Assembly: GCA_964187785.1 (NCBI GenBank)
Contig: OZ076411.1
Span: 34,720,001 to 34,784,000, forward strand
DNA length: 64,000 bases
Origin: Amphiscolops sp. MND2022
Lineage: Eukaryota
Reading direction: 5' to 3'
Made by a program: the position numbers and the translations under genes. This document shows, one piece after another, positions 16,739 to 62,737 of the stretch (its first letter is position 1; the number at the start of each line of letters is the position of its first letter). Under the pieces are notes generated by a model. It made no database searches, was not told the DNA's origin, and was given only the letters and a program-made list of their open reading frames with translations.

Positions 16739-16938
16739 NNNNNNNNNNNNNNNNNNNNNNNNNNNNNNNNNNNNNNNNNNNNNNNNNNNNNNNNNNNNNN
16801 NNNNNNNNNNNNNNNNNNNNNNNNNNNNNNNNNNNNNNNNNNNNNNNNNNNNNNNNNNNNNNNNNNNNNNNNNNNNNNNNNNNNNNNNNNNNNNNNNNNN
16901 NNNNNNNNNNNNNNNNNNNNNNNNNNNNNNNNNNNNNN
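16739..16938. other. Assembly gap (200 N)
   Basis: Run of exactly 200 N; contiguity across it is not guaranteed. Confidence 0.99.
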
Positions 16939-33075: not shown

Positions 33076-34700
33076 GATTCAATATGCTGTCTTGTATCAA
33101 ATTCTACTTTGTTTTGTTAAAACAATTACTCTGCAAACTTCAATTCAAAATGGATAAATCCAAAAATCTTTTCATCAAGAGAAGCTAGAAAAGAAGAATG
33201 TCCTTCAAAAAAGCAACAAAAATAATCAGAAATGTACAGAACAACGACCCTAACAGAAGTCGTAACACCTATACAACTGCAATCGTTGATAAATTTGAAA
33301 ACATTACCTATTTTCAATATTTGCAACACGTGTAAAACAATTTCTGTACTTGTATTTGTAGTGCGGTTTATATTTCACAGCAAGCTATACTGACAGGCAG
33401 AAAGGAAACGAGCTCAAATGATTGCCTGTTCAGTATAGCTAGCATAGCCGCATACGGCGAATAAGCCAATCAGAGCTTTTAGCTACACTTATAGTTGCTG
33501 TAATACATTCATTTACTAATCGGAAGAGACCGCCACGACCACTCGACATAAGCGGTCTAATTACGTTTCGTTGATATACTGTGCTATTATTGAATGACCA
33601 GAACAAAGCGAATACGGCCTTAATGACTAAATACTTGTCCAAACGTTACTATTGCTATTATAGAGACCGATACGGCCAGCAGACTAAATGAGTACTCCCA
33701 TTCATCAGAACCAATATGAAATCGATGCTACCTTTGATGATATGATAACGAAATATATGTTATGAATTGCAGAGTATTCAATCTCATGTAAATATTAATA
33801 TGTAGTGTTGCTTAAATAGTTAAATAGTCCCTTGCGGTCACAACCCGTACAGGGTCGCATGAATTGTTACGCAAGTAAAACTGTTTCATACATGAATTTA
33901 AGCTTGTAAACTATTTGACCTATACGCGGTGGGTCCTTGTCGGGCGCTTTGATCTAGCCGCCCGCACAAGTCTACAATGGGTATAAATATGCCCAAGTTG
34001 GCCCTCAAAATTAATTACCCTAGTGATACGGTTTTTGTTCAATTGCTCTTATACAAGTTGTACAAGACTTGCTGTGAAACCTAGTTCATATGGTCTCCGG
34101 GAACAATTTAATTATTTTCTCCTGGTTAAGTATTTTCAATGCCCTCCACAATGAGACAAAAGGCTAAGGCCAGGAAGTCAAGATAATTAGATATGCTTTC
34201 TGATTACGGTAAAATGGACGTAATGTTAGGTGGAGGAAATTCCAGCTTTGTAGAAAGAGAATTGGATAGTCTTATTAAAGTCCCTGAAAGGCAACAGGAC
34301 TTTCAGTCCTTTCCAAACAGAGAAAACTCATCTGAAGAGAATGAGATTAGGGATATCGATAGTAGAAATGAACCTGTCAGAGAAGGTAGACTAATGGAGT
34401 CGATCAACATGTTATCTAAAGAAATGAATGCCAGAATGTTTCGTGAGATCGAAATGATGATAGACTTAATGCATACTCAAATTAGCAGAGCCATTGGCTC
34501 TGCCATGAGTGAGAGAATCATTCCAGAGATACAAAACATGGTGGAAAGCTTGCCTTTGAACCAGCATGGCGTTGAGCCGTATACGTCCAAAAATGAGGAT
34601 GGAACTAGAAATGTATGGAAGAACGCAAATACAAAATTAACAAAAAAGGACTCAAGGTCCGCTTGTGATCTAAGGGACCACACGGACAATGTTCCTTACA
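33076..34700 (+). repeat. E1 3' LTR copy C, ending ...CCTTACA
   Basis: Restarts at GATTCAATATGC (equivalent to 17745), carries an internal deletion of roughly 140 bp relative to B, and ends at the same CA as the 5' LTR. Confidence 0.85.
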
Positions 34701-36106: not shown

Positions 36107-39100
36107 GAAAAGAAGAAAGAAAAGAAAAGTTAATTTTTCCAGCTGTTCTGAATAGTTTGATTTATAATAAACACAAGGCAAAACATGAACATCCGAAACG
36201 GACGAGGAATGAGCGTAATCGCTCTTCAAGTCCTCGCCCTCAAGAACCAATTTTTAACACTTTTATTCATTAAATTTTTGAAGTACGAATACACAATTCT
36301 CTTTTAGAACAGAATAGAATGTAATTCCTTGTTATCTATGATATACAAATAACCTAATTTAGTAAGGTAGGCCCGAATTTTGTGTGAATTCAATTTGTTT
36401 ATGTCATTAGGTATCAAGTCCATCCACTTCAACCAATTGTACGTTTTGCGTAAAGTATTTTCGAGTGATTTCCGTTTCGTGACAGTTCTGCTATAAGTAG
36501 TGCTAAAGAGCCCTTTTGCCAGCCAACGTGTTGTCATAATTGCATCTGTAACATTTGGTATTTCTAGATACTGAACTGGTGACTCATTACGTAGTTGTTT
36601 AAAAAGTTCTTTAACTATTTCAAGAGTATAAAGTTCGTAGACAGTGAAAATTTTGTTATCTAACAATATATCTCTCAAGGAGTCAAATTTCTTTTTGAAA
36701 AACACTGCTCTCAAAATGCGTCTCTGAGCGTTCTCAATTTTCTTCAGATTGGTTTTAGCAGCTGATCCATACATACTTAGTCCATAGCAAATAATTGATT
36801 TGGCAAAAGAATTATAAAAATTAGTAGACATTTACGTGGATACATATGCCTTACTCTGTATATTAAACCACAGAATTTTTTAAGTTTTTTTGTGACATAA
36901 TCGAAATGTTCTCTAAATTTGAGGCTGCCGTCTAAATGTAATCCTAAGTATTTACATGCCTTTTGATAAGGTAACTCATTTCTCAAAATAGTAACTTTGT
37001 CTGGTTTGCCGCATCCAAAGGAGATTGCTTCACATTTATCTACGTTAACTGTTAGTTTATTTGAAACGAACCAATTTGTCATGTTTTTCAAGTCTTGTGT
37101 GATGAGAGGACTTGTTTTATCACCAGCGTTTAAAACTGTTGTATCATCAGCAAATGACTTTAATGACTTGGTGTAGATCGTTGATATATAAAAGGAAGAG
37201 ACGAGAACCTAAAACGGAACCCTGAGGTACACCTGTACAAATTCTTCGCTTAGATGATATAGAACAATCAGATGCCACAACCTGCCAACGATTATCGAGA
37301 TAACTTTTCACAATGTGATAGATAGGTCCTCTGAAACCGTACTTTTCAATTTTATTCAACAAAATATTATGATCCAGCGTGTCGAAAGCTTTCTGTAAGT
37401 CAATGAAACAAATTTGTCCAATACTTTTTCTATCAATTTCAGTTCCAATATACTCCGTTACAGTACTAATTGCATCGACACAAGACCTTTTTGATCTAAA
37501 ACCGAATTGAGTTGATGTCAAAATCTTTTCCTTTACACAGAATTTGACCATCCGTTTATGCAATAGCTTTTCAAACAATTTCCCCAGAGAACTAAGAAGG
37601 CTGATTGGTCTATAATTGGCTGGGTCCGATTTATCACCTTTTTTATGTAACGGTATGACTTTCGCCACTTTCAAACACGTAGGATAGGTTTTCTCCAAGA
37701 TGCATTTATTAAAGGCTATTGCTATATATTCATCCACAATGGGAGAACAGCACTTCAATATATCGTTACTGATACCATCCTCACCACAACTTTTCTTATT
37801 TTTCATCTTTTTAATTATTGATGTAACTTCAGACGCATTTGTGGGGTACACTACCATTGTGTTTTCAACTTGCTGTATTGTGTCACTATTGGTAACTTTA
37901 GGAAGATTTGAGGACAGTATTGAACCGATAGATGCGAAATACTTGTTCAAATCTTCTAAATCAGGTAATGATGAATGGGGTTGCTGCTGTTTCTTTACAG
38001 TCATAAGTGTCTTGTATATGGTTTTAGCAGTAGGATTATTTCCCAATTTGCGAAAATTTTCTTCTCGTTTTGATTCTCTGATGACTTGGGTAACGTAATT
38101 ACGGAATTGCCGGTATCTCTCCCTGTTCTCAGTACTCGAATTATCTAGCCATATCTGATACAATCGATCTCTTTTCTTTATCGCTTTCTTGATTTTGTTT
38201 GTAATCCATTGGTTTTCATTTTTAATAGATGGAACATTTTTCTCAGGAGCAACTTTGTCGACGCAATATGTGATTGTTTCTATCATCTGCGAGACAAATT
38301 CATCTACCGGAAGTGTTTGAGGTATCGATTAAAGTTTTTGATCGAGAAGGAACAGAAAATTCAAAGACCTGTCACCTTTCAGATTGTTTAAGTTACGGGT
38401 AATATCAGATTTTTCACATATCTTAGAATCATTTACTGGCACAGGTATTTTTACCAATACTGTATAATGATCGCTAATAGTCGTAAAAAGGGTTTGGGTT
38501 ACTATTTCGTTCTGCGTTATCAAATGGTCAATACAACTTTTCGACTTCGTTGTCACGCGAGTTGGTTCAAAATTACGAAGTTCGAAGGCATATGCTGCTA
38601 ATAGTGTTTCATAATTTTTTCTATCTGTGTCATCTTTCAGTGTATCGATGTTAAAGTCGCCAAAAATTACCGTTTCATTGCTTCGTGAATTCAAAAAATG
38701 TAGAAGTTTTTCTAGTTTTAGGAAAAACTGATTTAGCCGCAATGTTTCGGGCCTGTATATAACACAGATTGTTGTGGAATAGGTATCTGTAAACTGTACT
38801 TCAGTTATATTACACTCAATGTCAGAGGTGAACTCAATTGGCTTGTATTTAATGGGATTTTTCATAAAAGGCCACCCCACCAGACCTTTTCTTGAAGTTT
38901 TTACGAGGTACAGATTCAATTGGTTGGTAGTCTGTGAGAGTATATTTTTCAGCACTGTCTTCCTCTGCAATCCAGGTTTCAGTTGGTGCTAAAATATCTG
39001 GCTTGTGATCTATTGTTTCAAGTAATACTGTTCGCTCATCTTTGTGTTATCTAAGGCACTGTATATTCAGTCCAAGTATGATTCGATATGGTTGTGCTAA

Positions 39101-39676: not shown

Positions 39677-41563
39677 TGTCGCGACCCCAGGGGTGCCACG
39701 GAAATCATATAACGAGAGGGACGCCTGAAGAAGGAAGTGAGGAAACCGACCAGGTCAGGTCAGAATCACCATGAACAAATCTAAAATAGAAGACCAATAA
39801 ACAAACCATTTGATACTATTTATATAACACGCAAAAGTACATTTTCTTCTTCTGTGCCGTACCTAAAATAATAGATATGTTAATAATTATATATTAATAG
39901 TGAATCAAGTATTTGTTTAGCCAACGCACCGACAGAAATTAATTCGGTCAACGCGTCGACTGGAGACTCGCCTCAGCGGCAGCAGTAAATTTCATTAATC
40001 AACCTGTATCAGCCAATCAGATTTGAGCGCAGTTAATACAAATTGAAGAACTGAGGCAACGTCCCAGGCAGCTTACCAGTCCGCTGAAGCTGGGACGCTC
40101 GCTCAGTCACTCTGTCTGATCAATCAATTACAAATAATCGATGCTAATTTTAGATAAATGTTTCGCAGCTTAAAATAAGCTAAATACCAAAAGAACTTCC
40201 AATGAGTAATAATCGACGATGCTTGTAGTATTTTTAACGTGTTCGGTCCACTTTGTATTTGAGCCAACTTCCCAGGCAAAGCGCTAACTTTCTTTATTAA
40301 AACAAGAGCCTGGACAGATGACCGAACGTATTTAATTAATACATATCTTATAGCTAACCGAATAACAATGTTGCCCCTGTTAGACGTGATACTTGATAAT
40401 GACATAGTAAAACAACCCCCAGTGCTATTATTCAACCCCCACATGCAGTGTTTTGTTAATGTATAGTTGAGTCAACCGCCCGGTCAACCGGCCAGGCCAC
40501 TCTAAATGAAATTCGTTAACTGGCGTTCACCCAGGATTTTATCGTTAGCTTCAATTTAAAGTGCTAATTAACGGCCATAATCATCTGATTTAGAAGAAAT
40601 CAGTGCGTTAATTTATTTATTTGATGTTTCCCTTAAATTACTAGCAGTAAAATTTGGGATTGTTCGATGATAATTTCACTTTCCTTTCCCGCTTCAGTAG
40701 CTAGGTTCATGAATTTTCAGTGCCAACTTCGGTTCGGCGTCCTGAATTGGCGGGGAATGAAGAAGAATTAACGCGGAATTGGGACTCGGCAGGAAGTTAT
40801 TCCCACTTTTCCTTTGAAGTGAAATGAAACTGAAAGCCGAGTCCCGAGGAAGCGGACCTAATTTGGACTTCATTGCCTCGGATGGACGCCGAGCTGAACA
40901 AGGTGTGAATTCACGCGCGGGATTTATCCCGCGTGTTCAGCGAAAAGTATTTATACCTGAAGCGGGTTAAGGAAAGACTCAGAATATATTTTGATTTTTG
41001 CAGAACGCTCACCTTCAAAGTTGAATATTTTTCGTAACTTTCGCTTATTTTGATAATTGTTGCCTTCGAAATTGTTTGTTATTCTCCTTTCCAGTTCCAT
41101 AGTCAAGATTTTGATATTGTTTTATTGACTAACTGATATCGTTTGGGAATAGTTTGAGGCTTATAACTGCCAATAATACTTAATTCAGCTGTTTCCTAAC
41201 CCTTACATTTTCTCGGAGAAATGCCTGAAAAAACCCAGAAAAGAAAGCTACGGAGTGACCAGAGCACTAGTCAGATAGATGAAGAAATAGCTAGTTCAAC
41301 TAACGACGAAAACGTCTTGTTATCGGATAGAGATTTTGAAGATATCTCTAGTAAAGTTGAAAATAGGCTTTCTAAGCGACTTAGGGATACCGAAGTGAAT
41401 CAACGTGAAATATTAAAGCTGATCGAAAACTTGTCATCCAAAGTCGACAACTTAACCAATGTAAATCCGGGACAGAGTTCCTTAACTTTCGAGACTGGAA
41501 TTAGTGAAATCCCTAACGACGAATTAGAAGGAGTAGAACCAGCAAGGAGCGTTAACTCCAACA
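39677..41563 (+). repeat. E2 5' LTR (1887 bp), encoding the first 114 codons of gag
   Basis: Matches 53261-55148 with roughly 35 differences by eye (~98%); gag ATG at 41221. Confidence 0.97.
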
Positions 41564-41576
41564 TGGTGACAGGAGT
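41564..41576 (+). promoter_or_regulatory. E2 primer-binding site TGGTGACAGGAGT (tRNA-Leu-like), inside the gag frame
   Basis: Directly follows the LTR-terminal CA; 12/13 match to the Leu-type PBS TGGTGTCAGGAGT. tRNA identity is inferred. Confidence 0.8.
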
Positions 41577-42610
41577 CGTTAACGAACCAATGACCAGCAA
41601 CAACACCCACGCCCGATCTTCAAGCCTGCCACCTCCAAACCAGAGGCACTCAGACGAGATTATCGACAAACTACTAGAATCTCTATACGCAACGCATAAA
41701 CAAACACCAAATCTTCCTCGCTTACCAAAAACCCTAGCAACAACAATGCCAACGTTTGACGGTAAGACAGAAAAATTCGAGCTATTTGAAGACTTGTTTC
41801 AAACTAGCCTGAAAGTCCACCCACAAATAACAGAACAAGAGAAAATACACTATTTTCACTCACTACTGCGAGGAGACGCCTTGCAAACTTTTCGGAATAT
41901 GACCGAAACAACCAAAACCAACATAAACGACATCATAGCTGGTTTCAGACGAAGATACGTCAAAACACAATCAGTCGCCACCGCTAGATGCAAGTGGGAG
42001 AACCTCACATTCGACCCGGCAAACCAAACCTTTCAAGATTTCTTAGAAACCTACCAGAAACTAGCCCAAGAAGCATACGCGGACGACGCACCTAGATTTA
42101 TAGAGACCTCGTTCTACGCAAAAATGCCCACACAACTTAAAAGGGTATTGAACTTGAAACAGCTCGCCTTGAAACAGCATCATACGAAACAATGGTGCAA
42201 CATCTGGAACGAGAAATGGAGCTCAACGGATTAGCCAACCCAGAATCCGCGACATTCACAGGCATACACAACGTGGAACCAACTAATAACCTCAACCAGG
42301 AAAGACCCCCAAAAACCGCGAGTAGCTGCTTCGGTGGTGGACATCAGGGCCACCTCCTCCGCAACTGTAGGAAGACGAACAGAGATTAACGATTCCAAAA
42401 AACCCTCAACACAACCAACACCAACCCCTGCGAAACTTGTGGTAAACTAAGCCACGAAACCAAGGATTGCTACTCGGGTGCAAACTGGGCAAACCGCCCC
42501 ACATGGTGGAAGACACCTAAACCAATATGCTCGAACAGCATACCTCTACCCCAATCAACCACACCCGAGGTTAGGCAACAACCCCAAGCAAACCAACAAC
42601 CTACCCAGCC

Positions 42611-42617
42611 AAAAAAC
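42611..42617 (+). promoter_or_regulatory. Putative -1 ribosomal frameshift heptamer A AAA AAC (gag-pol)
   Basis: Correctly phased in the gag frame one sense codon before the gag stop; the -1 frame is open into pol; E1 has the same heptamer at 20570-20576. Confidence 0.75.
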
Positions 42618-45600
42618 TACTAAAGCCACGTCTTCGCTTCGGGGACTACACTGATTTCAGATACTATACCATCTCTGAACCCCCGAAGGACTTTGATAAA
42701 GAATTGTATATGGAATGCTCTGGAGAACCATCAATCGACTGGCAGCGACGATGGCTCATCCGACGTCTCATTAAATTTAATAAGAACACCCTCGACAAAC
42801 TCCCCTACCCCGACTGGTACACCCAAAACCCTACCCACTACAACTCCACCCGAAGACCACTACTCCCCAGCTCCACACCCGAAACCTACATCTACGACCC
42901 AGACTTTCAATGTGACCCGTGCTACAACGAAACTCTATACCACACCGAAAAACTCGTTTTCAGACAATCCATCAACGTACCGTTTCACGAATTCATAGCC
43001 AGAACCAACATGGATATCTCGACAACCCCAAAGAGGAAAGACGACACAAGTCATACTCCCAAACCACAGGCTGAAGAAGAACACGACAAAGAAATCGCAG
43101 TGATCGTAACGCCACCAATGACTTCCCTTAAGTCGATACTCAAAAACTAGAACCAAACTCCACCGGTTGACTATGAGTCACCCAAGAAACTCCCAGCCAC
43201 CTCCAACGAAATACGGGCAGCTATGACGTCGTCTCCCTCTAGCCCAGAGAGCCCTGAACTCCGATACTCCACGCCCGAACCCCCGGGAAATAAAAAGAAA
43301 GCCGGGGACCTTACACAGGCAAACGAACCTGTAATAAACCCCCGGACCCGCCGTGTTAAACGAAAACTAACCAGTGAGTTTAATCCAACAAAGAACGACA
43401 ATCCTAAAACACACAACTCACCAAGAGAAGTCCAAACCCCCAGCAACGAGACACACAAGCCAGACCAAGATGAGGATTGGATTCATACCAACAAGCAACT
43501 AAACGAAATCGCAATCACAGATCCAGAAACGAGCAAAAAATGCATACCAATCTTCTCAGCCATTCACCTAAAAAAGAAACGGAAGATGCTCTTCGCCCCA
43601 ATGGATTTCAACAACCTATCAGTAGACGCACTTGTTGATTCAGGGGCGCTTGTCAACTGTCTACCAGAAAGCGAACTCCAGAAGATTAAATCAGTCAGCC
43701 CAGACAACATACTCAAAGAAATGGACCCACCCGCCTTCAAGCTGCAGGTCGCAAACAGCGACATAGAAACACCAACGAAAACCGTCCAACTCCAATTCGA
43801 ATTAGGAGATTGGACGTTTAAAGAGACGTTCATTGTAGCTACAAAGATGACAGGTCCTATCCTCGGACTAACATTCCTGAAAAACAACAGCGCCATTCTA
43901 GACGTGAGCCAGGCCCTGCTGCATTTCCCACACCTGACCTACGCAATCACTGCAGAGGACAACGAAACAGTTTCAAGACACCACAAAGTGACCATCAAAA
44001 ACCAACTCACCATCATGCCCGACCAATGCATAACAATTGAAGCTGGCATTAACCTGCGTACCATAACAAACACCACAGGAACTATCCACCCCACCGAACA
44101 ATACTCAGGAGAACACCAACTAGTAGTCGCCAGCTCTCTATCCACGGCCACAAACTCAAAAATTGAAACACGGGTCACCAACACATCACCGAACCCTTTC
44201 ACTCTCAAAAAGAACGCAAACGTCGCAGAATTCACCATACTGTCACCCCAAGAGGCTAAACAGCTCCATCCACTCAATTCGGCAGCCCTCAAGGTCTTAG
44301 CAGAAGACAATACGGAACAGGCTCTCGAATATGTCAATGAACTTCTGAAATCGTCGGAAAAACCCCAAACAACTCAGAACTTCTGGTTTCCCACGCCAGA
44401 CAACCCTGGAGATCCAGCTTCACACACCCCTATCCAAAGCAGAATCCTCAGAGAGATAGAAGAACTTTAAAACATCCAGAAACTCAACCCACACAACAGC
44501 CCCGAAGATAGAGCAGCCTTCTTAGCCAACTTCAAGTGGACCAATTCTCAACTCAGCGACGCAGACAAGAAAGACATAGAAGAGATCCTCGTCGAATACA
44601 ACGACGTCTTTGCAAGGCACCGTCTCGGCATTGGAATCAACAATGACTTCAAAATAAAACTCTCACCTAAATCAGAACAACTGCGTACACACAAAGTTTA
44701 CCATGCCCAGTCAATCTGAAGGAGGATTTGACAGTTGAGCTGGCACTGATGCACTACTACGGCATCATTACAACACTCCCCTTCAGCAAGTACGCAAGCC
44801 CAATTATTGCGCAAAGAAAACCTAACGGACGTCTTCGCCTCCTTGTTGACCTGAGGAAGATCAACAACCTAATCTCCGACGACTATATAAACAACAACCA
44901 CCCAGTGAGCACCCTCTCCGACGCCGCGCAACACCTAGCCGGAAAGAAACTGTTCTGCAAGCTTGACTGCTCTCAAGCCTACCATGTCCTGCAAATGGCA
45001 GACCAGAAATCAGTGGAACTCCTGGCGTTCAACTTTGCCAGTCGGACATTCGCCTACCTGCGACTCGCACAAGGGCTCAGCAGATCCCTCTCTTCCTTCT
45101 CGAGCTTTATGCGGGAGTACCTCAATCGAGTCATAAAAGCTGACAAAAGTGCCCAGTACGTTGACGACATCGGGATAGCAACCCATACCGCCGAGGAGCT
45201 GAAGAACAACCTGCGTGAGGTCTTCCAGTGCATTAGGGAAGCAGGTCTGCGTTTGACAATGGCTAAATGTCAGTTCGGTGCCAAGGAAGTCGAATTCCTT
45301 GGACGAACAGTCTCACCCGAAGGCATCGCCCCACAACCTCACAAGATCAAAAACTACCTACAAAAACTGTCGTTACCGAAAACCAAAAGGGCCTACAGAG
45401 ATACATCGGCTTCGTTAACTATCATCGAAACTACATACCTCGCCTTTCTGAAAAATCGCACCATTCCACGAGCTAGTCAAGGCAGACAAGCCAATCAAGA
45501 TCACAAACGAGATCATGCAGACATTCGAAAACATCAACAAAGCCCTAGACAATGCCTGCGGACTATGGCTGAAACAACCATTACCCAACAAACAATATGT

Positions 45601-47983
45601 CCTCATGACCGACGCGAACTTCAAGAATGCCGGCTAGGCCCTCATGATTGAAGAAAACGCAGATGAAAAACTGACCTCGGTCAAAAAGACATACGCCCCA
45701 GTCGCGTTTGGATCCAAAACATTATCGCCGTCACAAATCAAAATGTCAATATATGCCAAAGAATTTCTGGCTATATATTTTGCCTTCATGGAATACAGCC
45801 ACATTTTGTGGGGATCGACCAAACCAGTCATCGTTCTAACAGACAACAAATCTGTTACACGTTTCTTCCAAACCAAAATAATACCACCAGCGTTGTGGAA
45901 TGCCTGCGATTTCGTCCTACAGTTTAATTTCACAATCGCCCACGTTCCAGGAAGGATGAACACTGCCGCAGACTTCCTCTCACGACTCGACCTGGATCCA
46001 AAAGAGAAAGTCCAACTACTCATAAGAGACGACATTCAAACTACCCCAATAGAGGTACACATTCAGGCCTCCAACGTAGCCGAAGAAGAACAATTCTACT
46101 TCCTCCCCGAAGACGACATCGAAACAGAAGAGCAAATTTGGGAGAGGAAGCAGAGAGCCCGCAAAAAGATACAGGAGAACGACACCCCACAAACGCCAGG
46201 AGAAGAAACAAACAACAACACAACCCACGCTGAAGAAACCACTGTCGTATTTCGAACGGAAATCACCAGACGCACACAAAACTCTGAAGTGAACGAAAAA
46301 CCCCTCCCCCGTGACATGAGACACCAACAGGACCGAGACAAAGTCCTCCGAAATTATAAATTACGCCTACTCAAAGAACCATACGATAAACACCTAATAG
46401 CTACAGACCACACAGCACTCCAATACACGGCCCAAGAATCCCGGATCATACTCAAAGACGGACTGCTATACCGGCAGTATTTCGGGGAGACCGGGGCAGT
46501 CAAATACTTGCAGGTCTTACTACCAGAACAACTAGTCGACTCATTTATAGAGGCCCACCACGGATCGCACGACAAACATCCTGGGATAACAAAGGTGATA
46601 CAACAGTGTAGAGAAAAATACTAATACCCAGGTCTTGCAGCAAAAATAGCCAAACACATCAATCAATGCATGAAATGCATGCAAACAAAACGGACGGACA
46701 ACCGTCTCCTCACCCCACCAATGATTGATACCTCCAAACTAGCATTGGGACCAGAAGACGCCCCAGAAATGGACATCGTCCCGTTCGATGAACCATCGAA
46801 TGGATTCACAGCGATAGTCACAGCCATGGACATTTTCTCACGCTACCTGTTCACATACTGCGTCAACAGGATAGACGCAAAGACAATCGCAAGAGTACTA
46901 GTAGACATTATGACACGACATGCCTACCTGCCTACAACAATAATAACCGATAAATGAACCCAATTCATGTCAGAAGTAGTAGCAGACACAACACGCGTAC
47001 TGGGCATTCAACTACGCCACGCCACAACAAAACACGCCCAAACGATAGACATCCTGGAACGCTGTCACGCATCCCTTAAAGAAGCTCTGAAAATCTCAAC
47101 AGGGGAAAGACGAACGATGTGGCACCAGTTCGTACCAACAGCCACACTAAACTATAACACAACCTATCATTCGGAACTCGGGTGCGAACCCAGTCGGGTG
47201 TTTCATGGTAGAATACCATACAATGTTCTCGACCTCAAATTTGGCCTTAAACAGAACCGACAACCAAATCCAACAACAGACATAGGCGAAGAAGTCGTCC
47301 AAAAAACCCGAATGATACACGAATCAGTGAGCAAACACCTCCTACACTCATACATACGGTACAAACAGTACTATGACAAAACAGCAGCAGCTCACCCATT
47401 AGCAGCAAACGACTACTGCTATGCACTACACCCCCAGGCAAACAACCAGGGATCGAAATTACCTTTTCGGGAGTTCTTATGGACAGGACCATTCGTAATA
47501 GTCAAAACTCTCCCCAACAATAACTACCTAATTCGCAAATTACAAACAAACAAAACACAAATCCTACACAGGATCCGACTGAAACCATGCCCTATCAAAG
47601 GCCGCCTGCCACACATCCAGGTTCAAACAAAGGATTTCCAACCAGATAACGAAGTCGAAATCTTACACGATGATTTATACGCCCTAGCATGGCAGTCTGG
47701 TTTTGAACACTTCGTGATGACACCCGAACACAATACGCATAGCGAACCTACTATCATATCTACAGACACCGAAGACAACCTACAAAATGGTACCCAGGAC
47801 GCTGACCCAGACGCCCTTCCAGAAAACCATCCCGATCAACCGGAAACCCAACCCGAACCCGGCCCTAACCCAGAACCTAGTTCCCCCCGGAAAGGAAAAT
47901 ACCACCTTCGTAGCAACCCCCCTTCAAATTGGAAAAGAGATTACGCTTACTACGACCCAGTGGTAATTAGCTCAAACGAATAA
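42617..47983 (+). pseudogene. pol: E2 pol: unassigned N-terminal domain, protease, dUTPase-like spacer, RT, RNase H, integrase with GPF tail (several lesions)
   Basis: LVDSGALVN; LVDLRKINN and YVDDIGIA; LMTDA and YAKEFLAI; HHGSHDKHPG...CMKC, MDIFSRY, IITDK, LERCHASLK, WTGPFVI. Confidence 0.95.
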
Positions 47984-48402
47984 ACTCTCAAAACGAATTC
48001 ATGAAATATTTGTACGGTACATACTCTACTTACGCAACTGATAGCCCACGACTGACTCAAATCACTACTAACTCAACTACGAACTCAAAAGAAAAACGAT
48101 ACAAAGGAGAAAAGAGTGTATTGAGGATGCCCCAGTTTAATTTTCTCGTTTTATATACATAGAACTGCCAACACCCCCAGAGGAGGTTTTTTTTATTCTC
48201 GAGAATTCAACTGCATTTTTGCCTGGCTGAAGTTTACCATAAATATCAACAAACCCAGTGGGATCAAGAATACAAATAATACATCAAGTCGTATAATAAA
48301 AACCAATACAAAGTTTACAATTCATGCACAACAACGACAAAGACTATACTAAAGTTTGCAAATAACTACAGCAAATGAAGTTCATCATCGGACCCTGGAC
48401 CA

Positions 48403-51400
48403 TTACTCGCCAGACGCGCCTTTGCCCGACTTTCCAGAACTCGCCCGGCTTGAGCTACGCGAATGAGATGCACCTTGCTGTTTCCTTTTCTTCTCTTTCA
48501 ACCTCTGAGCCACATCACTAGATCCACTAACAGACGCAACAGCCTTAGCAAGTTGACCGGCTCCACCCGAAACTGGGGCAGAAGCAGAAGCACCCTGGTG
48601 GACAGAAGACACAACACCAGACCCGGATTCGACGTCTCGGGCAGACGGCAGTTTACTAGTAGGAGAAGTAACAGAGAAAGCACATAGCCCTGCCCGTCGA
48701 CGCCACTCGGCAACTTGCCCCATGTAGTAACCATTGAAACTGTCACGAAGGTCGCGATACATATCCTGCCGAGCAAGCACATACAGAGAACGCCAAGGAG
48801 CAAAGGTAACATCGGACATGAAAACATGTCCGGATGGTAAATTAGCCTTCAATTCGTCAAGGCAGTCCTTTGTCAGCAGTTCCCCAGAGACGAAACCACT
48901 GTCGGAAATATACGATTGTACTGCCCGGACCGAAGACAACAGGACCTTCTCAGGAATTGCAGCCCCACTGAGCGAAATCTCCACATCTGGATACTGAACT
49001 ACCCGTGGCACAACCCCAACTGACACTATGCCGACCACCTTCGACAAATGCAGACGACACTCCAACAGTCCACTCTGCCACAGAAAACAAAAACTGTCCT
49101 TGATGGTCGAGATCACTTGCCGGTTACGTCGTCGCAAATCAACCAACAACGATTTGAACTCGTTAGCAGAACCCTCGGCCTCCACAGAAGACAACCGCCC
49201 ACAAGTCTGCAGACAAGATACCAAGTCACGAAACAGCGAAACGGTATATGCCTCTTCCCCCATAAGAAGCATGTCCGGGGAAAAACAACTGAGGCTGGAA
49301 CACAATCGAGAAGTTGCGTAGGCAGACGTATTCAGAACTTTCAAAAATTTCATCAAAAACCATGGCATTCCCGCAGAAAACCCCGCTTGACAGCATCACT
49401 GCAACCATCCAATGCCTTGATAACGATAGGCTCACTTCGCAAACAATCGATGTAGGACACATTAGCCCATGTTGACAATGGCCGCCCAACATACTCACTC
49501 CACTCTTCAATAGCAGGCAACTCAGACAACTTCTTCACCTTCCCCAGAAGACTCCAGTAGAAGAAACAGAACTCGGCATAATTCCGACAACTATAGTCGG
49601 TGACCGATTTGTCAGATTGTGTCTCAAAGTTTGACTGAAAACATGACACCAACACATGCAACAAGCTCAGACGGGGCAAAATGTAGGTATCTGACACAAT
49701 CACTTGACCCAAGTCGACAGGAGTCCTTCCACGGAGAGTAAGTGTACTATCACTTTCCTTGAAGAACAGTTTAACATCCTCCCAATGGGCTACAAGCTCT
49801 TCCAGCACGACACCAAAAGAAGCAAAAGGAGTATCCCGGCGTCGGACACACTGGCGAAACTCTACAAGCCCTAATAACCAGGGCTGATGAACGGCTTTAT
49901 CCAAGCGCAATAGCAAGAATTCCAGAACTGCAAAGGGATCCAAACAGTGGGCACCGACCATACCCGCGTCCCGAACATGATCCTTGAAGACTGACGACGA
50001 ATACTCCAGCAAAGAGAGAGGCGACGACCGACCATGTGACCGACACCACTCACTGAACACGTTGAACAAAGTCGAAGAGCAGCCGAGCAAGGCAACAGGG
50101 GCCTGCCCCTCAGCCAGGATAGATAAAACCCGCGACAAGCAACGGATTTCCGCATCACAAATGCCAGTACTGTAAGGCTCCCACAAGAGGCACACCTCTC
50201 GAACACGCCCATCAACTTGACACCGAACAATACAATTGACTCCATTGAACTCCTCGCGAAACAACACACTGAATACAGAATCCTTACACCAAGACTGCAC
50301 TCCGCGAAGAATACGAGGATATAACGTCTGACTGACAATGACAAGGCACTCAGTTTTACTCCACGTGGCCTGCGCATAGGTCTACTCGACTGGGATGGTA
50401 GCACGGAATTGGTTCCAAAGACGCCGCAGGAAACTATGGGAACCACCACTACGGAGAAGCTCAAATAGCCCCGCCACCAACGTTGCAGACTGCACATTCG
50501 ACACAACACCGACCAGAGCATCCACTTCGTCTTCTCTGAAAGGATTTTTCTTCCCCAAAGTGACAGGAGGAGTTTCTTCAATCTCGGCACGCAATTCCGC
50601 TGAAATAGTAGCCACTTCCACAGCATCAAACTGAGGCGTGTAAAACACATCCTCATGATCTAGTCGATAACGACGATCTTTTAAGTAATGGCTCTTACGG
50701 CTGAAATGACGCCAGATCTCAGGAGCACCACGACTCAGGAATTTGATGTCCTTTTGACAAATGGCACAATTGAAGCCATTCGGGCTCTTATCAGTCCTCT
50801 GACTCACAAATAATTGAGGGATAGCATGCACAGCCATTTCCTTGCGCAACACGTGCCGCTCCGTCTGCCTCCTTTTCCTGCGTTCATACTTGACAAACAG
50901 TTTACGTTTTGTCTTTTCTTCCTCATCCAACTGACTTCCTCGTCCGGGTAACTGAATGCCTTTTGACTTCAACAGCCGAACAACTTCGTCCATACCTAAA
51001 CCACACAAACAAATGACAACCCAAGTCTTACGCAGGTGATTAACGACACCAAATAAAACACACGACCGCCCACCAAAATCACCAAACTAAACTAAACATA
51101 ATTCGACCGACCACAAAAGAAGAGGAAACTTCACTTACGACGCGACAGAGATTTTTCTTCCAACAGTGACTGAGATCGTTCCAGTCGCACTGCCGCTTGA
51201 CCATAAGCCAGAATTTGACTCGACGACAGACACACTGCACCGGTAGGCACCTCCTTTAAGCCAGCTAAACAACACAGAACAGTGAAAATAACTAGCCACA
51301 GCAAACCCTACTGTACATGAAGCTTATGGACAAACGACGACAACAATGCAATCCAAAAAAGCACAACTTTACCTTTAGCCCATTCATTATGAAGAACAGG

Positions 51401-52435
51401 CTTCTCCAATCCTTCAGCAGGACGACAATGCTGCGTGCGCTCATGCCGCAAATGTGAACCACTAGGTGCCATACTAGCAAGTTGAAACGGGGAAACATCA
51501 GACGACCCGCCGGGCAAACCACCCACATCAGTGAAAACGTCTCCCTCCTGAGGTAAAGGAGTCTGTGCTGAAAACAACACGCAGTAAACTACCAAGTTCT
51601 GGAACACAACAATGAAACCAAGAACCGAACTACCTACCTTCATCGTCTCCACAAAGGACGCCAGAGAAACCAAGTCCAGGACTGTCATCAGAGCTCAACA
51701 CATTAGTGCGCACCCGCTTTGTTGAGCCACCCAGAATAGCTGAGAGCAGACGTTTACTGCGACGTGAACCGACATCGCCAGCAGCAGAAGAAAGGGTGAA
51801 ATCCTCATCACTCGGATCATCTGAGAGCCCTACGGAAACAGAGGTAGATGAAATGACGCGTCTGCATACTAGCATCAAAACTGTTAACTGGCCATTAACA
51901 AATAGCTAAGCAACCCACCTGATTGTTCCATTAGGTAATCCAGTCCATTGCGAGCATTACTGCCAGAAGAATGGACAGACCCAGCATCGTCGTCACCACG
52001 AGCAGAACTGTCTTCAGGAGGAACATCACCGGAATTCCGATCAATCTCGTCACCAGAACTGTCGTCTGTATCAACCTCGCCAAAACCGGCAACTCTCCGA
52101 GACACACGAACCTCAGCCTCTGACGGGACATTTGAATCAAAAGGGACCACATCGTTCAGGTCATCTTCCAACTGAACTTCTCTTCCCTCTTCCACAACGA
52201 CCAACCGACCGTCAGGAGGCGACTCCACAACAGCACATATTTCATCGACTGCTTTACTCACAGCACTCTGTTCCGCTGCCCCAGGGACACCAACAATTTG
52301 ACGCGCATCAGTTCCAACACTCGCATCTCCTGTATCGACTCGCGCCCCACCCAGAGACTCACCTTCACTCTCCAAAATTCCAATCTGCTGCGACTGAGCA
52401 AAACGGACAGCATCCTCATCAGTAGAATCTGCCAT
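48403..52435 (-). pseudogene. E2 antisense five-exon accessory gene (~1220 aa): acidic N-terminus + CCHH zinc finger + hAT-transposase-like body; one nonsense codon and one frameshift
   Basis: Predicted exons (minus strand) 52435-51919, 51868-51638, 51567-51373, 51264-51139 and 50995-48403. All four introns are GT-AG and phase 1, and they join the exons in frame. TAG at 50384-50382; 1-nt loss in a T-run near 49355; minus-strand AATAAA at 48197-48192. Confidence 0.8.
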
Positions 52436-52719
52436 TTTGTCTGTTCAAAGCAATCTAAAAAATTAAAACACCAAGATAAACCAATAGAAGACGTGGCGTA
52501 AAACCAACGCTAATATTATTATCATAATCTACTAATATGACGTAGTGGAAGTCATTCAGTCTGCCAGCTGAAAACTTCCTCAATCACGCAAGCGGCGTGA
52601 ACAATTACAAAGAACAGAATTATCATTCAATTTTTCAGCTATTCCCAAGACGGTCGCTCAGCATTCATCGGCAATCTACAACCGTATTACTTTTACCGAT
52701 TACTTTCATCAGTAATACA

Positions 52720-53358
52720 ATGGCATCTCTTGATCTCAACTTATCAAGCGATAGTTTCATTCTGGAACGCGACCAAGCTGCTTATTTGAACAACCCTGCG
52801 GCGCAATCAACACCTAAGACACGACCTAACCCCCATTCGGCAGAACAATCACCTATTATTCAGGATGTGTACGAAATTATAAATACAGGGGGAAAACACA
52901 TCGTGCTTTACCACGAAACAGCCCCAGCTTCAAAACTAGCAACGGCACAAGAGGATACACTCCCGATCAGAAGGTTTACCAAAGTCAACCCGATTATACC
53001 AGATGACATATTTATGAGCCCACCGAGAAATTATGACAACATGAATAGCTGGCTATACAGTCCCAACGACGGCACAATGAGCCCAATATCTGAAACCAGC
53101 TCAATTGGCTATTTCTCGGGAAGTGACTGGACAACTGACTCGTCCTGATTCTCCTATGATTCATTTATACAATCTGTGTTCCAACAACCAATCTCGTCGC
53201 CGTTTAGACCAGTTTCCCCACTCCCTCCTATACCGGACGCCCCTCAAGAAAGCCGGGGACTGTCGCGACCCCAGGGGTGCCACGGAAATCATATAACGAG
53301 AGGGACGCCTGAAGAAGGAAGTGAGGAAACCGACCAGGTCAGGTCAGAATCACCATGA
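52720..53358 (+). pseudogene. E2 sense accessory ORF3 (S/P/T-rich, ~212 codons), crossing the PPT into the 3' LTR; one in-frame TGA
   Basis: ORF 52720-53148 and ORF 53176-53358 share one frame, separated only by TGA 53146-53148; the last ~32 codons lie inside the LTR. Confidence 0.55.
53246..53260 (+). promoter_or_regulatory. E2 polypurine tract (imperfect)
   Basis: AAGAAAGCCGGGGAC directly before the 3' LTR TGT. Confidence 0.7.
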
Positions 53359-55148
53359 ACAAATCTAAAATAGAAGACCAATAAACAAACCATTTGATAC
53401 TATATAAATAACACGCAAAAGTACATTTTCTTCTTCTGTGCCGTACCTAAAATAATAGATATGTAAATAGGTATATATTAATAGTGAATGCAGTATTTGT
53501 TTAGCCAACGCACCGACAGAAATTAATTCGGTCAACGCGTCGACTGGAGACTCGCCTCAGCGGCAGCAGTAAATTTCATTAATCAACCTGTACCAGCCAA
53601 TCAGATTTGAGCGCAGTTAATACAAATTGAAGAACTGAGGCAACGTCCCAGGCAGCTTACCAGTCCGCTGAAGCTGGGACGCTCGCTCAGTCACTCTATC
53701 TGATCAATCAATTACAAATAATCGATGCTAATTTTAGATAAATGTTTCGCAGCTTAAAAGAAGCTAAATACCAAAAGAACTTCCAATGAGTAATAATCGA
53801 CGATGCTTGTAGTATTTTTAACGTGTTCGATCCGCCTTGTATTTGAGTCAACTTCCCAGGCAAAGCGCTAACTTTCTTTAATAAAACAAGAGCCTGGACA
53901 GATGACCGAACGTATTTAATTAATACATATCTTATAGCTAACCGAATAACAATGTTGCCCCTGTTAGACGTGATACTTGATAATGACATAGTAAAACAAC
54001 CCCCAGTGCTATTATTCAACCCCCACATGCAGTGTTTTGTTAATGTATAGTTGAGTCAACCGCCCGGTCAACCGGCCAGGCCACTCTGAATGAAATTCGT
54101 TACCTGGCGTTCACCCAGGATTTTATCGTTAGCTTCAATTTAAAGTGCTAATTAACGGCCATAATCATCTGATTTAGAAGAAATCAGTGCTGTTAATTTA
54201 TTTATTTGATGTTTCCCTTAAATTACTAGCAGTAAAATTTGGGATTGTTCGATGATAATTTCACTTTCCTTTCCCGCTTCAGTAGCTAGGTTCATGAATT
54301 TTCAGTGCCAACTTCGGTTCGGCGTCCTGAATTGGCGGGGAATGAAGAAGAAGTAACGCGGAATTGGGACTCGGCAGGAAGTGATTCCCACTTTTCCTTT
54401 GAAGTTAGTTGAAACTGAAAGCCGAGTCCCGAGGAAGCGGACCTAATTTGGACTTCCTTGCCTCGGATGGACGCCGAGCTGAACAAGGTGTGAATTCACG
54501 CGCGGGATTTATCCCGCGTGTCTAACGAAAAGTATTTATACCTGAAGCGGGTTAAGGAAAGACTCAGAATATTTTTTGATTTTTGCAGAACGCTAACCTT
54601 CAAGGTTGAATATTTTTCGTAACTTTCGCTTATTTTGATAATTGTTGCCTTCGAAATTGTTTGTTATTCTCCATCCCAGTTCCATAGTCAAGATTTGGAT
54701 ATTGTTTTATTGACTAACTGATATCGTTTGGGAATAGTTTGAGGCTTATAACTGCCAATAATACTTAATTCAGCGGTTTCCTAACCCTTACATTTTCTCG
54801 GAGAAATGCCTGAAAAAACACAGAAAAGAAAGCTACGGAGTGACCAGAGCACTAGTCAGATAGATGAAGAAATAGCTAGTTCAACTAACGACGAAAACGT
54901 CTTGTTATCGGATAGAGATTTTGAAGATATCTCTAGTAAAGTTGAAAATAGGCTTTCTAAGCGACTTAGGGATACCGAAGTGAATCAACGTGAAATATTA
55001 AAGCTGATCGAAAATTTGTCATCCAAAGTCGACAACTTAACCAATGTAAATCCGGGACAGAGTTCCTTAACTTTCGAGACTGGAATTAGTGAAATCCCTA
55101 ACGACGAATTAGAAGGAGTAGAACCAGCAAGGAGCGTTAACTCCAACA
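53261..55148 (+). repeat. E2 3' LTR (1888 bp)
   Basis: TGTCGCGACC...CTCCAACA followed by TSD GTAAC. Confidence 0.97.
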
Positions 55149-59092: not shown

Positions 59093-60955
59093 ACGCTTGA
59101 TATAGGGGAAGTGCCTGATGACTGGGCTACTTCGATATACCAACCGATTTTCAAGAAAGGGGAAAAAACGAATCCTAACAATTACAGGGGTATATCTCTT
59201 GCTAGCTGTCTCTGGAAACTCTTCACCTCAGTACTTACTGAAAGAATACGCGTAGATATGGAAAAACGGGATGTGTTAGGAATTGAACAAGCTGGCTTTA
59301 GGAACAAAATGGGGTGTGCTGATCATGTTTTTGTCTTATCGTCACTCATGAGTTTGTACCTTGCGCGAAAGAAAAAACTGTTTGTGACATTCATCAACTA
59401 TGAAAAAGCTTCTGATAAAGTGGATCATGGACTTCTCTGGCAAAAACTTGGACAAGCACAGGTAACAGGAAAAGTTTTGAGAATCATCCAAAATCTTTAT
59501 CAGAAAACTAAAGCGTGTGTTAGGGTAAATGGTGAAATTTCTGATATTTTCGATTGTAATATAGGGGTCCGTCAAGGGGACAACTTATCTCCGCTTCTAT
59601 TCATAATCTTTTTGAACGACTTCAACACTTTCATGCAGAGCGGGTTCGAGGGTATACGCCTGACACCGGACCAAAATAGTAATTTGAGAACCCTTCTGAA
59701 GTTGTACTCTCTTTTATATGCAGATGATACGATACTGCTAAGTCAAACGGAAAAAGACATGCAACGAGCTCTTGATGCAACCACAAAATACTGCAATGAG
59801 AACAAAATGACGATAAATGCGTCTAAAACAAAGTATATGGTATGCTCACGGGGAAAAATTAGGAAAAAAATAAATCTTTTTGTGAATAACACTGCAATAG
59901 AAAGTGTCGATACATTTTGCTACCTAGGAGTTGTGTTCAAGTATAAGAACACCTTTCAAGCTGCAATCAAAAACAACGTTGACAAAGCTGAAAAAGCTCT
60001 TTTCAAATTAGAAGAGCTCTTTAGTAAAATCGATTTTGGAATTGACACTAAGTTACATCTCTTTGATGCGGTGATAGAGCCTATATTACTTTATGGTTGT
60101 GAAGTATGGGGTTATGAGAGTATGGAACAGATTGAAATTTTTCATCGCTATTTTCTGAGACACCTTCTTCGAGTACGAAAAAATGCACCGAAAGCTATGT
60201 TATGTGGGGAGTTGGGGAAAAAGAATTGAAGTATACAGTTTGGAAAAGAATGGCATCTTTCTGGAAAAAACTTATCAACGAAGGAAACAACCTCGCCGGT
60301 TTGATATATCAGATGATAAATATTAACGATCATGAACATAAATGGATGTTGGGTGTTAAACATATTATAGTGAATTGTGGAATACCTATGGTAAATACTT
60401 ACATTAATTTTGTAAGTTCTTTCTTTTTCGAGTTCAAGAAATATATTGAGCGGAAGTGTGAAGATCTTGCAACTCAGTCTTGGTACTCAATGCTGAACAC
60501 TAATTCACTATGTGATTGCTATAGGGAATTTAAACATGGACTCTTTCAGGAGCCTTATTTACGCAAACTGAAGGCAAAGTATAGGATACAACTTAGTCGC
60601 TTCCGCTGCGCTCCATACATGTCATCAGGAGTAAAAGGGAGAATAACGGGCAACCACAGTCAACATTGTTCGTTCTGCCATAAAGAATGCAAAGCAGATG
60701 ATTATCACTGGGTTATGGTCTGCGAGAACTTTAGAGACATAAGGGAGGAACTTATCCCGAAATTTTTTCAATCGTTTCCAAATATAACGAAATTTGACCA
60801 GCTGATGAATTCCATGAACATTGAACTTCTTGAAAATCTTTCTGTTCTGTGCGGTGCTATATGTAATGCTGGAACGTCTGGTACCAGCTAATCAACCTGT
60901 CTTGTAATTTATACGCCCTTTGGGCAACAAATTAATAATTAAAATTTCATTTCAT
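59093..60955 (+). mobile_element. 5'-truncated non-LTR retrotransposon (RT + C-terminal Cys/His region), degenerate
   Basis: NYRGISL, EQAGFR, FINYEKASD (degenerate), GVRQGDNLSPLLF, LLYADDT; frameshift near 60225; CSFC...DDYHWVMVC; 3' tail TTTCATTTCATT. Clade not determined (RTE-X-like by inference). Confidence 0.85.
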
Positions 60956-62737
60956 TAAAAAATTCAATTCTACGATTATGTAGCAAATTGCCTTCGTTCA
61001 GATTGCCAACTTCTATCCATTGTTGATGACGTAGGATTTCGTAGATTATTGAACTATCTAACTATGGAGTTCATCAACTATGAAAAAGCTTCTGATAAAG
61101 TGGATCATGGACTTCTCTGGCAAAAACTTGGACAAGCACAGGTAACAGGAAAAGTTTTGAGAATCATCCAAAATCTTTATCAGAAAACTAAAGCGTGTGT
61201 TAGGGTAAATGGTGAAATTTCTGATATTTTCGATTGTAATATAGGGGTCCGTCAAGGGGACAACTTATCTCCGCTTCTATTCATAATCTTTTTGAACGAC
61301 TTCAACACTTTCATGCAGAGCGGGTTCGAGGGTATACGCCTGACACCGGACCAAAATAGTAATTTGAGAACCCTTCTGAAGTTGTACTCTCTTTTATATG
61401 CAGATGATACGATACTGCTAAGTCAAACGGAAAAAGACATGCAACGAGCTCTTGATGCAACCACAAAATACTGCAATGAGAACAAAATGACGATAAATGC
61501 GTCTAAAACAAAGTATATGGTATGCTCACGGGGAAAAATTAGGAAAAAAATAAATCTTTTTGTGAATAACACTGCAATAGAAAGTGTCGATACATTTTGC
61601 TACCTAGGAGTTGTGTTCAAGTATAAGAACACCTTTCAAGCTGCAATCAAAAACAACGTTGACAAAGCTGAAAAAGCTCTTTTCAAATTAGAAGAGCTCT
61701 TTAGTAAAATCGATTTTGGAATTGACACTAAGTTACATCTCTTTGATGCGGTGATAGAGCCTATATTACTTTATGGTTGTGAAGTATGGGGTTATGAGAG
61801 TATGGAACAGATTGAAATTTTTCATCGCTATTTTCTGAGACACCTTCTTCGAGTACGAAAAAATGCACCGAAAGCTATGTTATGTGGGGAGTTGGGGAAA
61901 AAGAATTGAAGTATACAGTTTGGAAAAGAATGGCATCTTTCTGGAAAAAACTTATCAACGAAGGAAACAACCTCGCCGGTTTGATATATCAGATGATAAA
62001 TATTAACGATCATGAACATAAATGGATGTTGGGTGTTAAACATATTATAGTGAATTGTGGAATACCTATGGTAAATACTTACATTAATTTTGTAAGTTCT
62101 TTCTTTTTCGAGTTCAAGAAATATATTGAGCGGAAGTGTGAAGATCTTGCAACTCAGTCTTGGTACTCAATGCTGAACACTAATTCACTATGTGATTGCT
62201 ATAGGGAATTTAAACATGGACTCTTTCAGGAGCCTTATTTACGCAAACTGAAGGCAAAGTATAGGATACAACTTAGTCGCTTCCGCTGCGCTCCATACAT
62301 GTCATCAGGAGTAAAAGGGAGAATAACGGGCAACCACAGTCAACATTGTTCGTTCTGCCATAAAGAATGCAAAGCAGATGATTATCACTGGGTTATGGTC
62401 TGCGAGAACTTTAGAGACATAAGGGAGGAACTTATCCCGAAATTTTTTCAATCGTTTCCAAATATAACGAAATTTGACCAGCTGATGAATTCCATGAACA
62501 TTGAACTTCTTGAAAATCTTTCTGTTCTGTGCGGTGCTATATGTAATGCTGGAACGTCTGGTACCAGCTAATCAACCTGTCTTGTAATTTATACGCCCTT
62601 TGGGCAACAAATTAATAATTAAAATTTCATTTCATTAAAAAATTCAATTCTACGATTATGTAGCAAATTGCCTTCGTTCAGATTGCCAACTTCTATCCAT
62701 TGTTGATGACGTAGGATTTCGTAGATTATTGAACTAT
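59390..62737 (+). repeat. Tandem duplication of 1668 bp (59390-61057 and 61070-62737) with a 12-bp junction filler
   Basis: Period 1680 bp; no differences seen by eye; filler CTAACTATGGAG at 61058-61069. Confidence 0.95.

Follow-up and report, generated by a model that had tools for sequence, protein, structure and literature searches.

A multi-intron antisense gene of predicted hAT-like fold in a Ty3/gypsy retrotransposon, with a covarying hairpin in its first intron

In a 64,000-nt stretch of the genome of Amphiscolops sp. MND2022 (contig OZ076411.1, positions 34,720,001 to 34,784,000; hereafter the window) we analyzed a Ty3/gypsy long terminal repeat (LTR) retrotransposon, E2, that carries a long gene on the strand opposite to its gag and pol. 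This antisense gene is interrupted by four phase-1 introns, whose positions are conserved among the copies collected in the 1.07-Gb genome. The explanation that we consider likely is that the introns are spliced from the message of an accessory gene with a hAT fold and no catalytic activity, and that a hairpin and a palindrome within intron 1 act on the genomic RNA of the element. The gene is laid out as follows, all on the minus strand:

ATG 52435 to stop 48405-48403: antisense gene of E2, between the integrase and the 3' LTR, about 1,200 codons
51919..52435: coding part of exon 1 (ATG 52435-52433), 517 nt, acidic and of low complexity
51830..51918: intron 1 as corrected here, 89 nt, phase 1
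51638..51829: exon 2, 192 nt
51568..51637: intron 2, 70 nt, phase 1
51373..51567: exon 3, 195 nt
51265..51372: intron 3, 108 nt, phase 1
51139..51264: exon 4, 126 nt (all 12 subfamily representatives have 126 or 129 nt)
50996..51138: intron 4, 143 nt, phase 1, at a position common to a distant relative, clade H
48403..50995: exon 5, intron-free, encoding a C2H2 finger, which we take to be BED-like, and a hAT-like body

The copy in the window is itself broken by a premature stop (50384-50382) and a frame break near 49360. As far as that stop the exons join in one open frame, as the original prediction had claimed, and introns 2, 3 and 4 lie exactly where it had placed them, with GT..AG ends, phase 1 and boundaries that are conserved among copies. 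In an alignment of 28 rows (the window plus 27 loci; of 30 loci, 3 were left out because they represented the window or a second piece of a copy already included), the donor GT and the acceptor AG are retained in 26 and 25 rows for intron 2, 26 and 27 for intron 3, and 25 and 24 for intron 4. The donor of intron 1 (51918) is likewise kept in 25 of 28 rows. All four GT..AG pairs of the original prediction are present at its coordinates and are phase 1, but the acceptor of intron 1 had been misplaced at 51869, giving an intron of 50 nt. Among 35 modelled copies (38 models minus 3 with a mis-called intron 1) this AG is in frame and stop-free in only 12; it leads to a frameshift or a stop in 22 and is absent in 1. 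The stretch between the two candidate acceptors (51868-51830, 39 nt) is 41 nt long in every one of 10 subfamily B copies, in all of which exon 2 still has 192 nt, and the upstream AG coincides with the end of the 3' arm of the conserved hairpin HP-B. Since a pyrimidine tract and AG are conserved at 51830, we assign intron 1 to 51918-51830; minor use of the upstream AG may occur in subfamily A. A reading of intron 1 as a coding stretch was dropped in view of 1-nt indels within subfamily B and differing read-through in clades D and G.

Subfamily B is young (8 compared copies are 97.6-99.3% alike) and shares about 70% identity with the window. In its copies, exons 2, 3 and 4 are 192, 195 and 126 nt long in 10, 9 and 10 of 10 copies, equal to those of the window, whereas introns 1 to 4 measure 90-91, 67-68, 93-95 and 128 nt as compared to 89, 70, 108 and 143 nt. 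The intron length differences are not multiples of three, and the introns are only 43-55% identical. Intron 4 varies from 128 to 164 nt among the 12 subfamily representatives. Retaining an intron brings in an in-frame stop in 44 of 48 intron cases, and the T fraction of the introns is 0.44-0.48 (comparison value 0.25-0.28). The non-synonymous substitution rate divided by the synonymous one (dN/dS) comes to 0.13-0.32 in exons 2-4 (9 of 9 pairs) and to 0.04-0.15 in exon 5 (the 3 of 9 pairs with unsaturated dS), i.e. the gene is under purifying selection. Models with these four intron positions could be built for 38 of 40 sequences, the most distant at about 50% protein identity. That the splice sites are chance GT/AG pairs, with the long last open reading frame (ORF) alone being translated, would suit the low complexity of the N-terminal region but is very improbable, given exon lengths that stay invariant despite frame-breaking intron drift, the dN/dS values of exons 2-4 and the recurrence of all four positions in clades that are about 50% identical.

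Some points weigh against this picture. The automatic models favour stop-free GT/AG pairs and the loci were picked for open last exons, so that the long ORFs (34 of 38 at at least 1,094 aa) arise partly by construction; some boundaries of introns 2 and 3 in these models are unverified; and no joined product of exons 4 and 5 is present among 187 stored proteins, where the sole match to exon 4 reads through intron 4. Even so, on the grounds of evolutionary conservation we infer that the four introns are very likely real, and we predict that they are spliced. Among the stored proteins, P0015, P0021 and P0022 are homologues at 46-47% identity. P0015 has an intron-like stretch ahead of the start of exon 5, and its best match in this genome reaches only about 50%, so the family likely exists in another organism.

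Introns on the strand that is not packaged are not seen by splicing of the genomic RNA. This is in line with what we observed, as two other young copies, whose LTRs are 99.4% and 99.0% identical and which have 5-bp target-site duplications (TSDs) of their own, carry the introns; they have been copied through retrotransposition. The antisense introns would thus persist because the packaged sense RNA shows no splice signals for them. The claim that antisense introns survive retrotransposition consequently holds for the TSD-flanked copies (LTRs 98.1-99.4% identical), but not without exception, as E2 lacks three introns in the body of the gene (see below). No precise loss of introns 1-4 in a single E2 copy was found among 40 scored candidates, and four split matches turned out to be imprecise deletions. 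A depletion of donor motifs on the genomic strand (8 vs 27) was dropped, since by a rough hand estimate base composition explains much of it. That an antisense intron can be carried through replication is already known from HBZ, the spliced antisense gene of the deltaretrovirus HTLV-1 (PMC1459196, PMC8622228). Both cases concern a spliced antisense transcript in a reverse-transcribing LTR element, the splicing in E2 being deduced from conservation. HBZ occurs in two alternative splice forms that begin in the 3' LTR, whereas the E2-type gene has four (in clade H six or seven) short introns inside a coding region of 1,100-1,200 codons that is derived from a transposase. The E2 gene would be transcribed from an internal or a 3'-LTR antisense promoter and then spliced. 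The gene is also mobile between elements: integrases that are 99-100% identical are paired with last exons only 62-66% identical, and since near-identical integrases carry such divergent exons, the antisense gene is exchanged as a cassette.

The window holds a second element, E1, with a homologous antisense gene. The original prediction described it as reading through the equivalent N-terminal region without introns and as showing only a candidate intron in the 5' untranslated region (30165-30071). We found four coding introns further downstream, in the hAT-like body, each with a GT in all 10 rows and an AG in 9-10 of them:

28388-28313, minus strand: first coding intron of the E1 antisense homologue
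27825-27711, minus strand: second coding intron
27575-27402, minus strand: third coding intron
27319-27255, minus strand: fourth coding intron

The intron content of E1 and E2 does differ in position, but E1 is not intron-poor. The N-terminal regions of the two do not align (best piece E=0.036). Upstream of the E1 antisense ATG there is a conserved acceptor at 30071 (minus strand), with a candidate donor GTATG in 7 of 10 rows, and a conserved non-coding block (30075-30150, minus strand) with the inverted repeat AGCGG/CCGCT, possibly a cis element of E1's own.

Clade H (10 loci, with the integrase on the strand opposite to the antisense gene in all 10) connects the two families. Its gene, modelled by hand in two copies, has N-terminal introns as well as three body introns. 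The body introns correspond to E1 introns 1, 3 and 4 in position and phase (one is off by one column through gap placement), and the last N-terminal intron corresponds in position to intron 4 of E2. E2 is colinear across the three body introns common to E1 and clade H and lacks them. Body identity is 29-30% between E2 and H, 23% between E1 and H and 20-21% between E1 and E2. Because H shares these introns with E1 and intron 4 with E2, and E1 is the most distant, the E2 clade has likely lost three adjacent introns precisely; against this, the direction of change is read from three lineages and no outgroup. When introns are lost through cDNA, neighbouring ones are expected to disappear together. 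Likely, then, cDNA of a spliced antisense mRNA would have recombined with the element and removed the three introns together. Antisense RNAs of Ty1 are described as associating with particles (PMC3592414). Upstream of the antisense gene, clade H also has repeated TGACGTCA-like motifs (L180:2200-2620, L181:2150-2480).

Intron 1 differs from the other introns in its conservation. Its first 50 nt are 92-94% identical between subfamilies A and B, as compared to 50-75% for the exons, so that this intron is under stronger constraint than the coding sequence. The relevant features are:

51870..51908: hairpin HP-B, outer stem TAGC/GCTA, inner stem TGTTAA/TTAACA
51894-51888: HP-B loop, TGGCCAG on the antisense strand, CUGGCCA on genomic RNA
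51855..51862: palindrome after HP-B, GACGCGTC; GAACGCGTTC in clade D and GACGCGTC in clade H
52545..52580: hairpin HP-A, between the antisense ATG and ORF3, a small sense ORF; loop 52567-52560, CTGGCAGA on the antisense strand

The loop of HP-B reads TGGCCAG in 90 of 105 rows and TGGCCGG in 8 (rows include repeats of a locus). In the A/B/F/G group the stem covaries, with 4 cells changed on both sides (A-U/G-C and U-A/C-G) and a score reached by 1 of 500 shuffles, which is inflated by the relatedness of the sequences. In clade D the stems are replaced wholesale, and one stem pair is A-T in 22 loci and G-C in 16 loci (18 rows, 2 fetched twice), with an intermediate that is G-U on the genomic RNA in 5 loci and on the antisense strand in 0. 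The layout is preserved in clade H, where the stem is longer, the apex mostly reads AGGCCT and GACGCGTC is present in 9 of 10 loci; the consensus energy there is -9.6 on the genomic RNA and -4.0 on the antisense strand, with G-U cells 10 vs 0, and the energy favours genomic RNA in 7 of 8. The hairpin and the ACGCGT palindrome can be traced to relatives at 30% protein identity.

The feature that persists from E2 to clade H is self-complementarity. E2 has UGGCCA as its loop palindrome, clade H has AGGCCU, and in clade D the variant CGGCCA, an imperfect palindrome, forms GGCCGGCC together with the stem. In 18 related copies there are 63 palindromes of at least 6 nt in 1,550 nt of intron 1 as compared to 54 in 6,609 nt of introns 2-4. 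The computed gain from homodimer formation is -12.7 to -17.1 kcal/mol in 6 sequences, and 0-3 of 40 base shuffles attain it. Palindromic dimer-linkage signals are known from HIV-1 (DIS), MoMuLV (PAL1/PAL2) and Ty1 (PAL1-3) (PMC7357161, PMC3592414), and HP-B resembles them in having a 6-nt palindrome in a hairpin loop and a second palindrome. It differs in lying inside an intron of the opposite strand, and its dimerisation is a computed one. By this analogy HP-B may, tentatively, be a self-complementary signal of the genomic RNA, of a dimerisation or packaging type. Intron 1 would then provide a non-coding space that houses a signal of the genomic RNA within a protein-coding antisense gene, and this likely imposes the extra constraint.

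A number of observations speak against a role on the genomic RNA. In the E2 clade the hairpin is more stable on the antisense strand in 17 of 18 copies (consensus -7.6 vs -4.7), single-sequence z-scores are weak (+1.1 to -2.6, and positive in a separate calculation), the covariation in clade H is modest (79 of 500 shuffles reach the score), and E1 lacks the pair of hairpin and palindrome. In addition, HP-B lies about 1.4 kb upstream of the 3' LTR and not in the 5' leader, i.e. near the 3' end, whereas the dimer signals of retroviruses and Ty1 in the cited papers are located near the 5' end (PMC7357161, PMC3592414). Since the substitution patterns outweigh energies that stem from two terminal U-G pairs, we lean towards the genomic-RNA strand as the one on which HP-B acts. 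Rfam returned 2 chance-level matches, neither inside the introns; the 94-nt block of intron 1 matched copies of the element among the 40 scored candidates, and five new places were all relatives; and of 368 pattern matches in metagenome contigs none was confirmed.

An alternative that accepts the introns lets HP-B work in the antisense pre-mRNA, where it would hide the AG at 51869 and tune retention of intron 1, retention yielding a short acidic protein or a decayed message. This would account for the better antisense folding in 17 of the 18 E2-clade copies, where invariant U-G pairs close the loop and terminate the outer stem, and for a cryptic AG at the stem end in a setting where retention gives a stop in 12 of 12 representatives. 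It would also fit the loops of HP-A and HP-B, which are complementary over 5 nt, a pairing that is retained in the clade D variant on the antisense strand alone. We nevertheless regard it as unlikely, as the genomic strand is favoured by the G-U cells of clade H and the clade D intermediate (5 vs 0), and as the palindrome-preserving changes TGGCCA/AGGCCT and GACGCGTC/AACGCGTT are left unexplained. The HP-A loop is near-invariant from E2 to clade D, and a loop-loop contact with HP-B, if formed, would span exon 1.

Alternatively, the conserved block could consist of DNA dyad sites for a dimeric factor, either of the host or the hAT-like protein itself, and act on the antisense gene or ORF3 as an enhancer or promoter located in the intron. 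The constant location of ACGCGT from E2 through clade H (9 of 10 loci), its symmetric flanks, the conserved region between the two ATGs with its TGACGTCA-like motifs, and the zinc finger kept in the protein are all compatible with such sites. The stem arms, however, swap wholesale (GTTAA/TTAAC to GGG/CCC) with pairing kept, and the G-U intermediates are strand-biased; because of these two properties an RNA structure fits better than a protein-DNA site, and we give the DNA reading little weight for the block as a whole. For the ACGCGT palindrome alone it may hold.

Improbable, in our view, is a hairpin of the Smaug/SAMD4 or ZCCHC14 type that controls translation or stability of the genomic RNA. 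Smaug recognizes a CNGGN0-3 loop on a stem (PMC4053848, PMC2275152). The genomic loop CUGGCCA/CCGGCCA fits this consensus in 98 of 105 rows (repeats included), with the common variant at a free position, but CNGG is missing from both strands of the clade H loop, chance matches are frequent (27 in E2 over two strands) and the invariant CCA is not demanded by the consensus.

The protein encoded by the antisense gene has no match in Pfam, and in the PDB nothing below E=0.23 by sequence. A structure model of the open last exon (mean predicted local distance difference test score 70) has Hermes as its top matches in Foldseek (E 1.1e-5, prob 1.00). In VIA the comparison with Hermes gives Z 13.6 with a root-mean-square deviation of 5.4 over 397 aligned residues, the next non-Hermes structure having Z 6.2, and the Atlas neighbours are hAT/FAM200/ZBED5 clusters at 0.90-0.92, with shared features below the guide value of 170. 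Both Foldseek and VIA indicate an RNase-H core with a helical insertion domain in the predicted structure, which suggests that the protein folds like the hAT transposase Hermes. The C-terminal dimerisation motif of hAT proteins (PF05699) has no Pfam match, and the structural alignment extends to Hermes residue 609. The zinc ligands of the C-x2-C..H-x4-H finger are kept in 24 of 28 rows, with no Pfam zf-BED match. Of the catalytic positions, the one that ends strand 1 has Asp in none of 30 rows and the one after strand 4 in 4 of 33.

With two catalytic Asp probably missing, the protein is likely a dead transposase. Several points count against such a view: 28 of 29 rows keep an acidic residue (D/E) at the likely third catalytic position, the assignment of the catalytic positions relied on secondary structure and visual inspection, the hhalign profile comparison with 9 hAT transposases of this genome was unusable (prob 0.12), and no hAT family of Pfam matches the antisense protein. 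A search of the genome for DUF4371 gave no match, nor did its control. No hAT-type terminal inverted repeats or 8-bp TSD around the gene appear in the repeat listing (minimum length 40), which was not a search aimed at them. Whether the protein acts as a DNA-binding helper we regard as evenly balanced, the zinc finger pointing weakly in this direction. In having a C2H2 finger and an RNase-H-like core with helical insertion it resembles Hermes, FAM200, ZBED5 and EPM2AIP1; it differs from these in an identity of about 12%, a long acidic N-terminus, the apparent absence of the first and second catalytic Asp, and in being carried by a retrotransposon and not by a DNA transposon or the host.

Antisense extra ORFs between pol and the 3' LTR (aORF-3R) have been described in plant and fungal Ty3/gypsy elements, such as Grande gene23, RIRE2, Retand TRP28/PF04195 and Boty (PMC7264820, PMC11963269). 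The E2-type gene falls within this definition, and shares with these ORFs the position, orientation, occurrence in most copies, a probable promoter of its own and a proposed nuclear regulatory role. The word 'intron' does not occur in the main text of either paper, and the E2 protein has no TRP28 match (PF04195, Transposase_28, in 0 of 33 members at E<=1) but has a predicted hAT fold and a multi-intron gene with intron turnover; it is not a TRP28 member and probably not an active hAT. A search of mostly open-access literature turned up no LTR retrotransposon described as having an antisense gene with several introns or of hAT origin, so a prior description may exist; the accessible text of PMC5408684, PMC12477816 and PMC13547354 describes no such gene.

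The host element and its remaining features are:

39677..55148, plus strand: E2, recognized by LTRs, TSD, primer binding site, polypurine tract and Pfam domains
39677-41563 and 53261-55148: LTRs with TG..CA ends, 98.1% identical
5-bp TSD, GTAAC; primer binding site from 41564; polypurine tract just before 53261
41200..47983, plus strand: gag and pol, in the Pfam order protease, reverse transcriptase (RT), RNase H, integrase
52720..53148, plus strand: sense ORF3, small, upstream of the 3' LTR, truncated in the window copy
52455, minus strand: acceptor-like TTTTAG, conserved, just upstream of the E2 antisense ATG

The placement in Ty3/gypsy follows from the order of Pfam domains and not from an RT tree. 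DUF1759 is associated chiefly with BEL/Pao elements; the E2 gag (41200-42234, plus strand) matches it above cut-off despite the gypsy-type order of pol. Stops and frame breaks interrupt gag-pol in the window copy. All three E2-family copies examined have 5-bp TSDs, with LTR identities of 98.1, 99.4 and 99.0%. ORF3 is 200-217 aa long in most relatives, with a single weak Pfam match below cut-off; there it is Ser/Pro-rich and extends over the polypurine tract into the 3' LTR, and it is exchanged independently of both integrase and antisense gene. A donor partner for the acceptor at 52455 was looked for and not found; for this acceptor and that of E1 at 30071, a donor inside the LTR and trans-splicing are possible options.

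Elsewhere in the window, E1 has a partial extra LTR copy adjoining its 3' LTR (17745-19464, 32009-33075, 33076-34700), and tandem repeats of its antisense region are present at G000:C13, near 32.45 Mb, as well. A broken LINE-like endonuclease-RT element (36304-38988, minus strand) lies immediately upstream of E2, and a 1,668-nt tandem duplication of 100% identity (59390-62737), a recent duplication or an assembly artefact, is found in a region of non-LTR-type RT. A 470-codon open frame with a Galactosyl_T domain (4987-6399, minus strand; E 1e-23) is probably a host gene, and a 200-nt break in the self-alignment (16739-16938) is probably an assembly gap.

Possibly, though this is the most speculative part of our explanation, intron 1 is a housing that cannot be lost for a dimerisation or packaging signal, its neighbours being deleted in block via reverse transcription of antisense mRNA, and the exchangeable cassette brings both an accessory protein and a cis signal from element to element. 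LTR elements are expected to shed introns, and genes captured by them to be processed. A selected multi-intron gene on the reverse strand shows a route by which a retroelement can keep its cargo intact. Its hundreds of copies in many subfamilies make up an unusually dense record of intron gain and loss in an element that makes its own RT, and the model of mRNA-mediated loss thereby becomes directly testable. The dimer and packaging signals of Ty1 are described as poorly defined in PMC3592414; such signals are poorly defined in LTR retrotransposons, and intron 1 is a short candidate with covariation.

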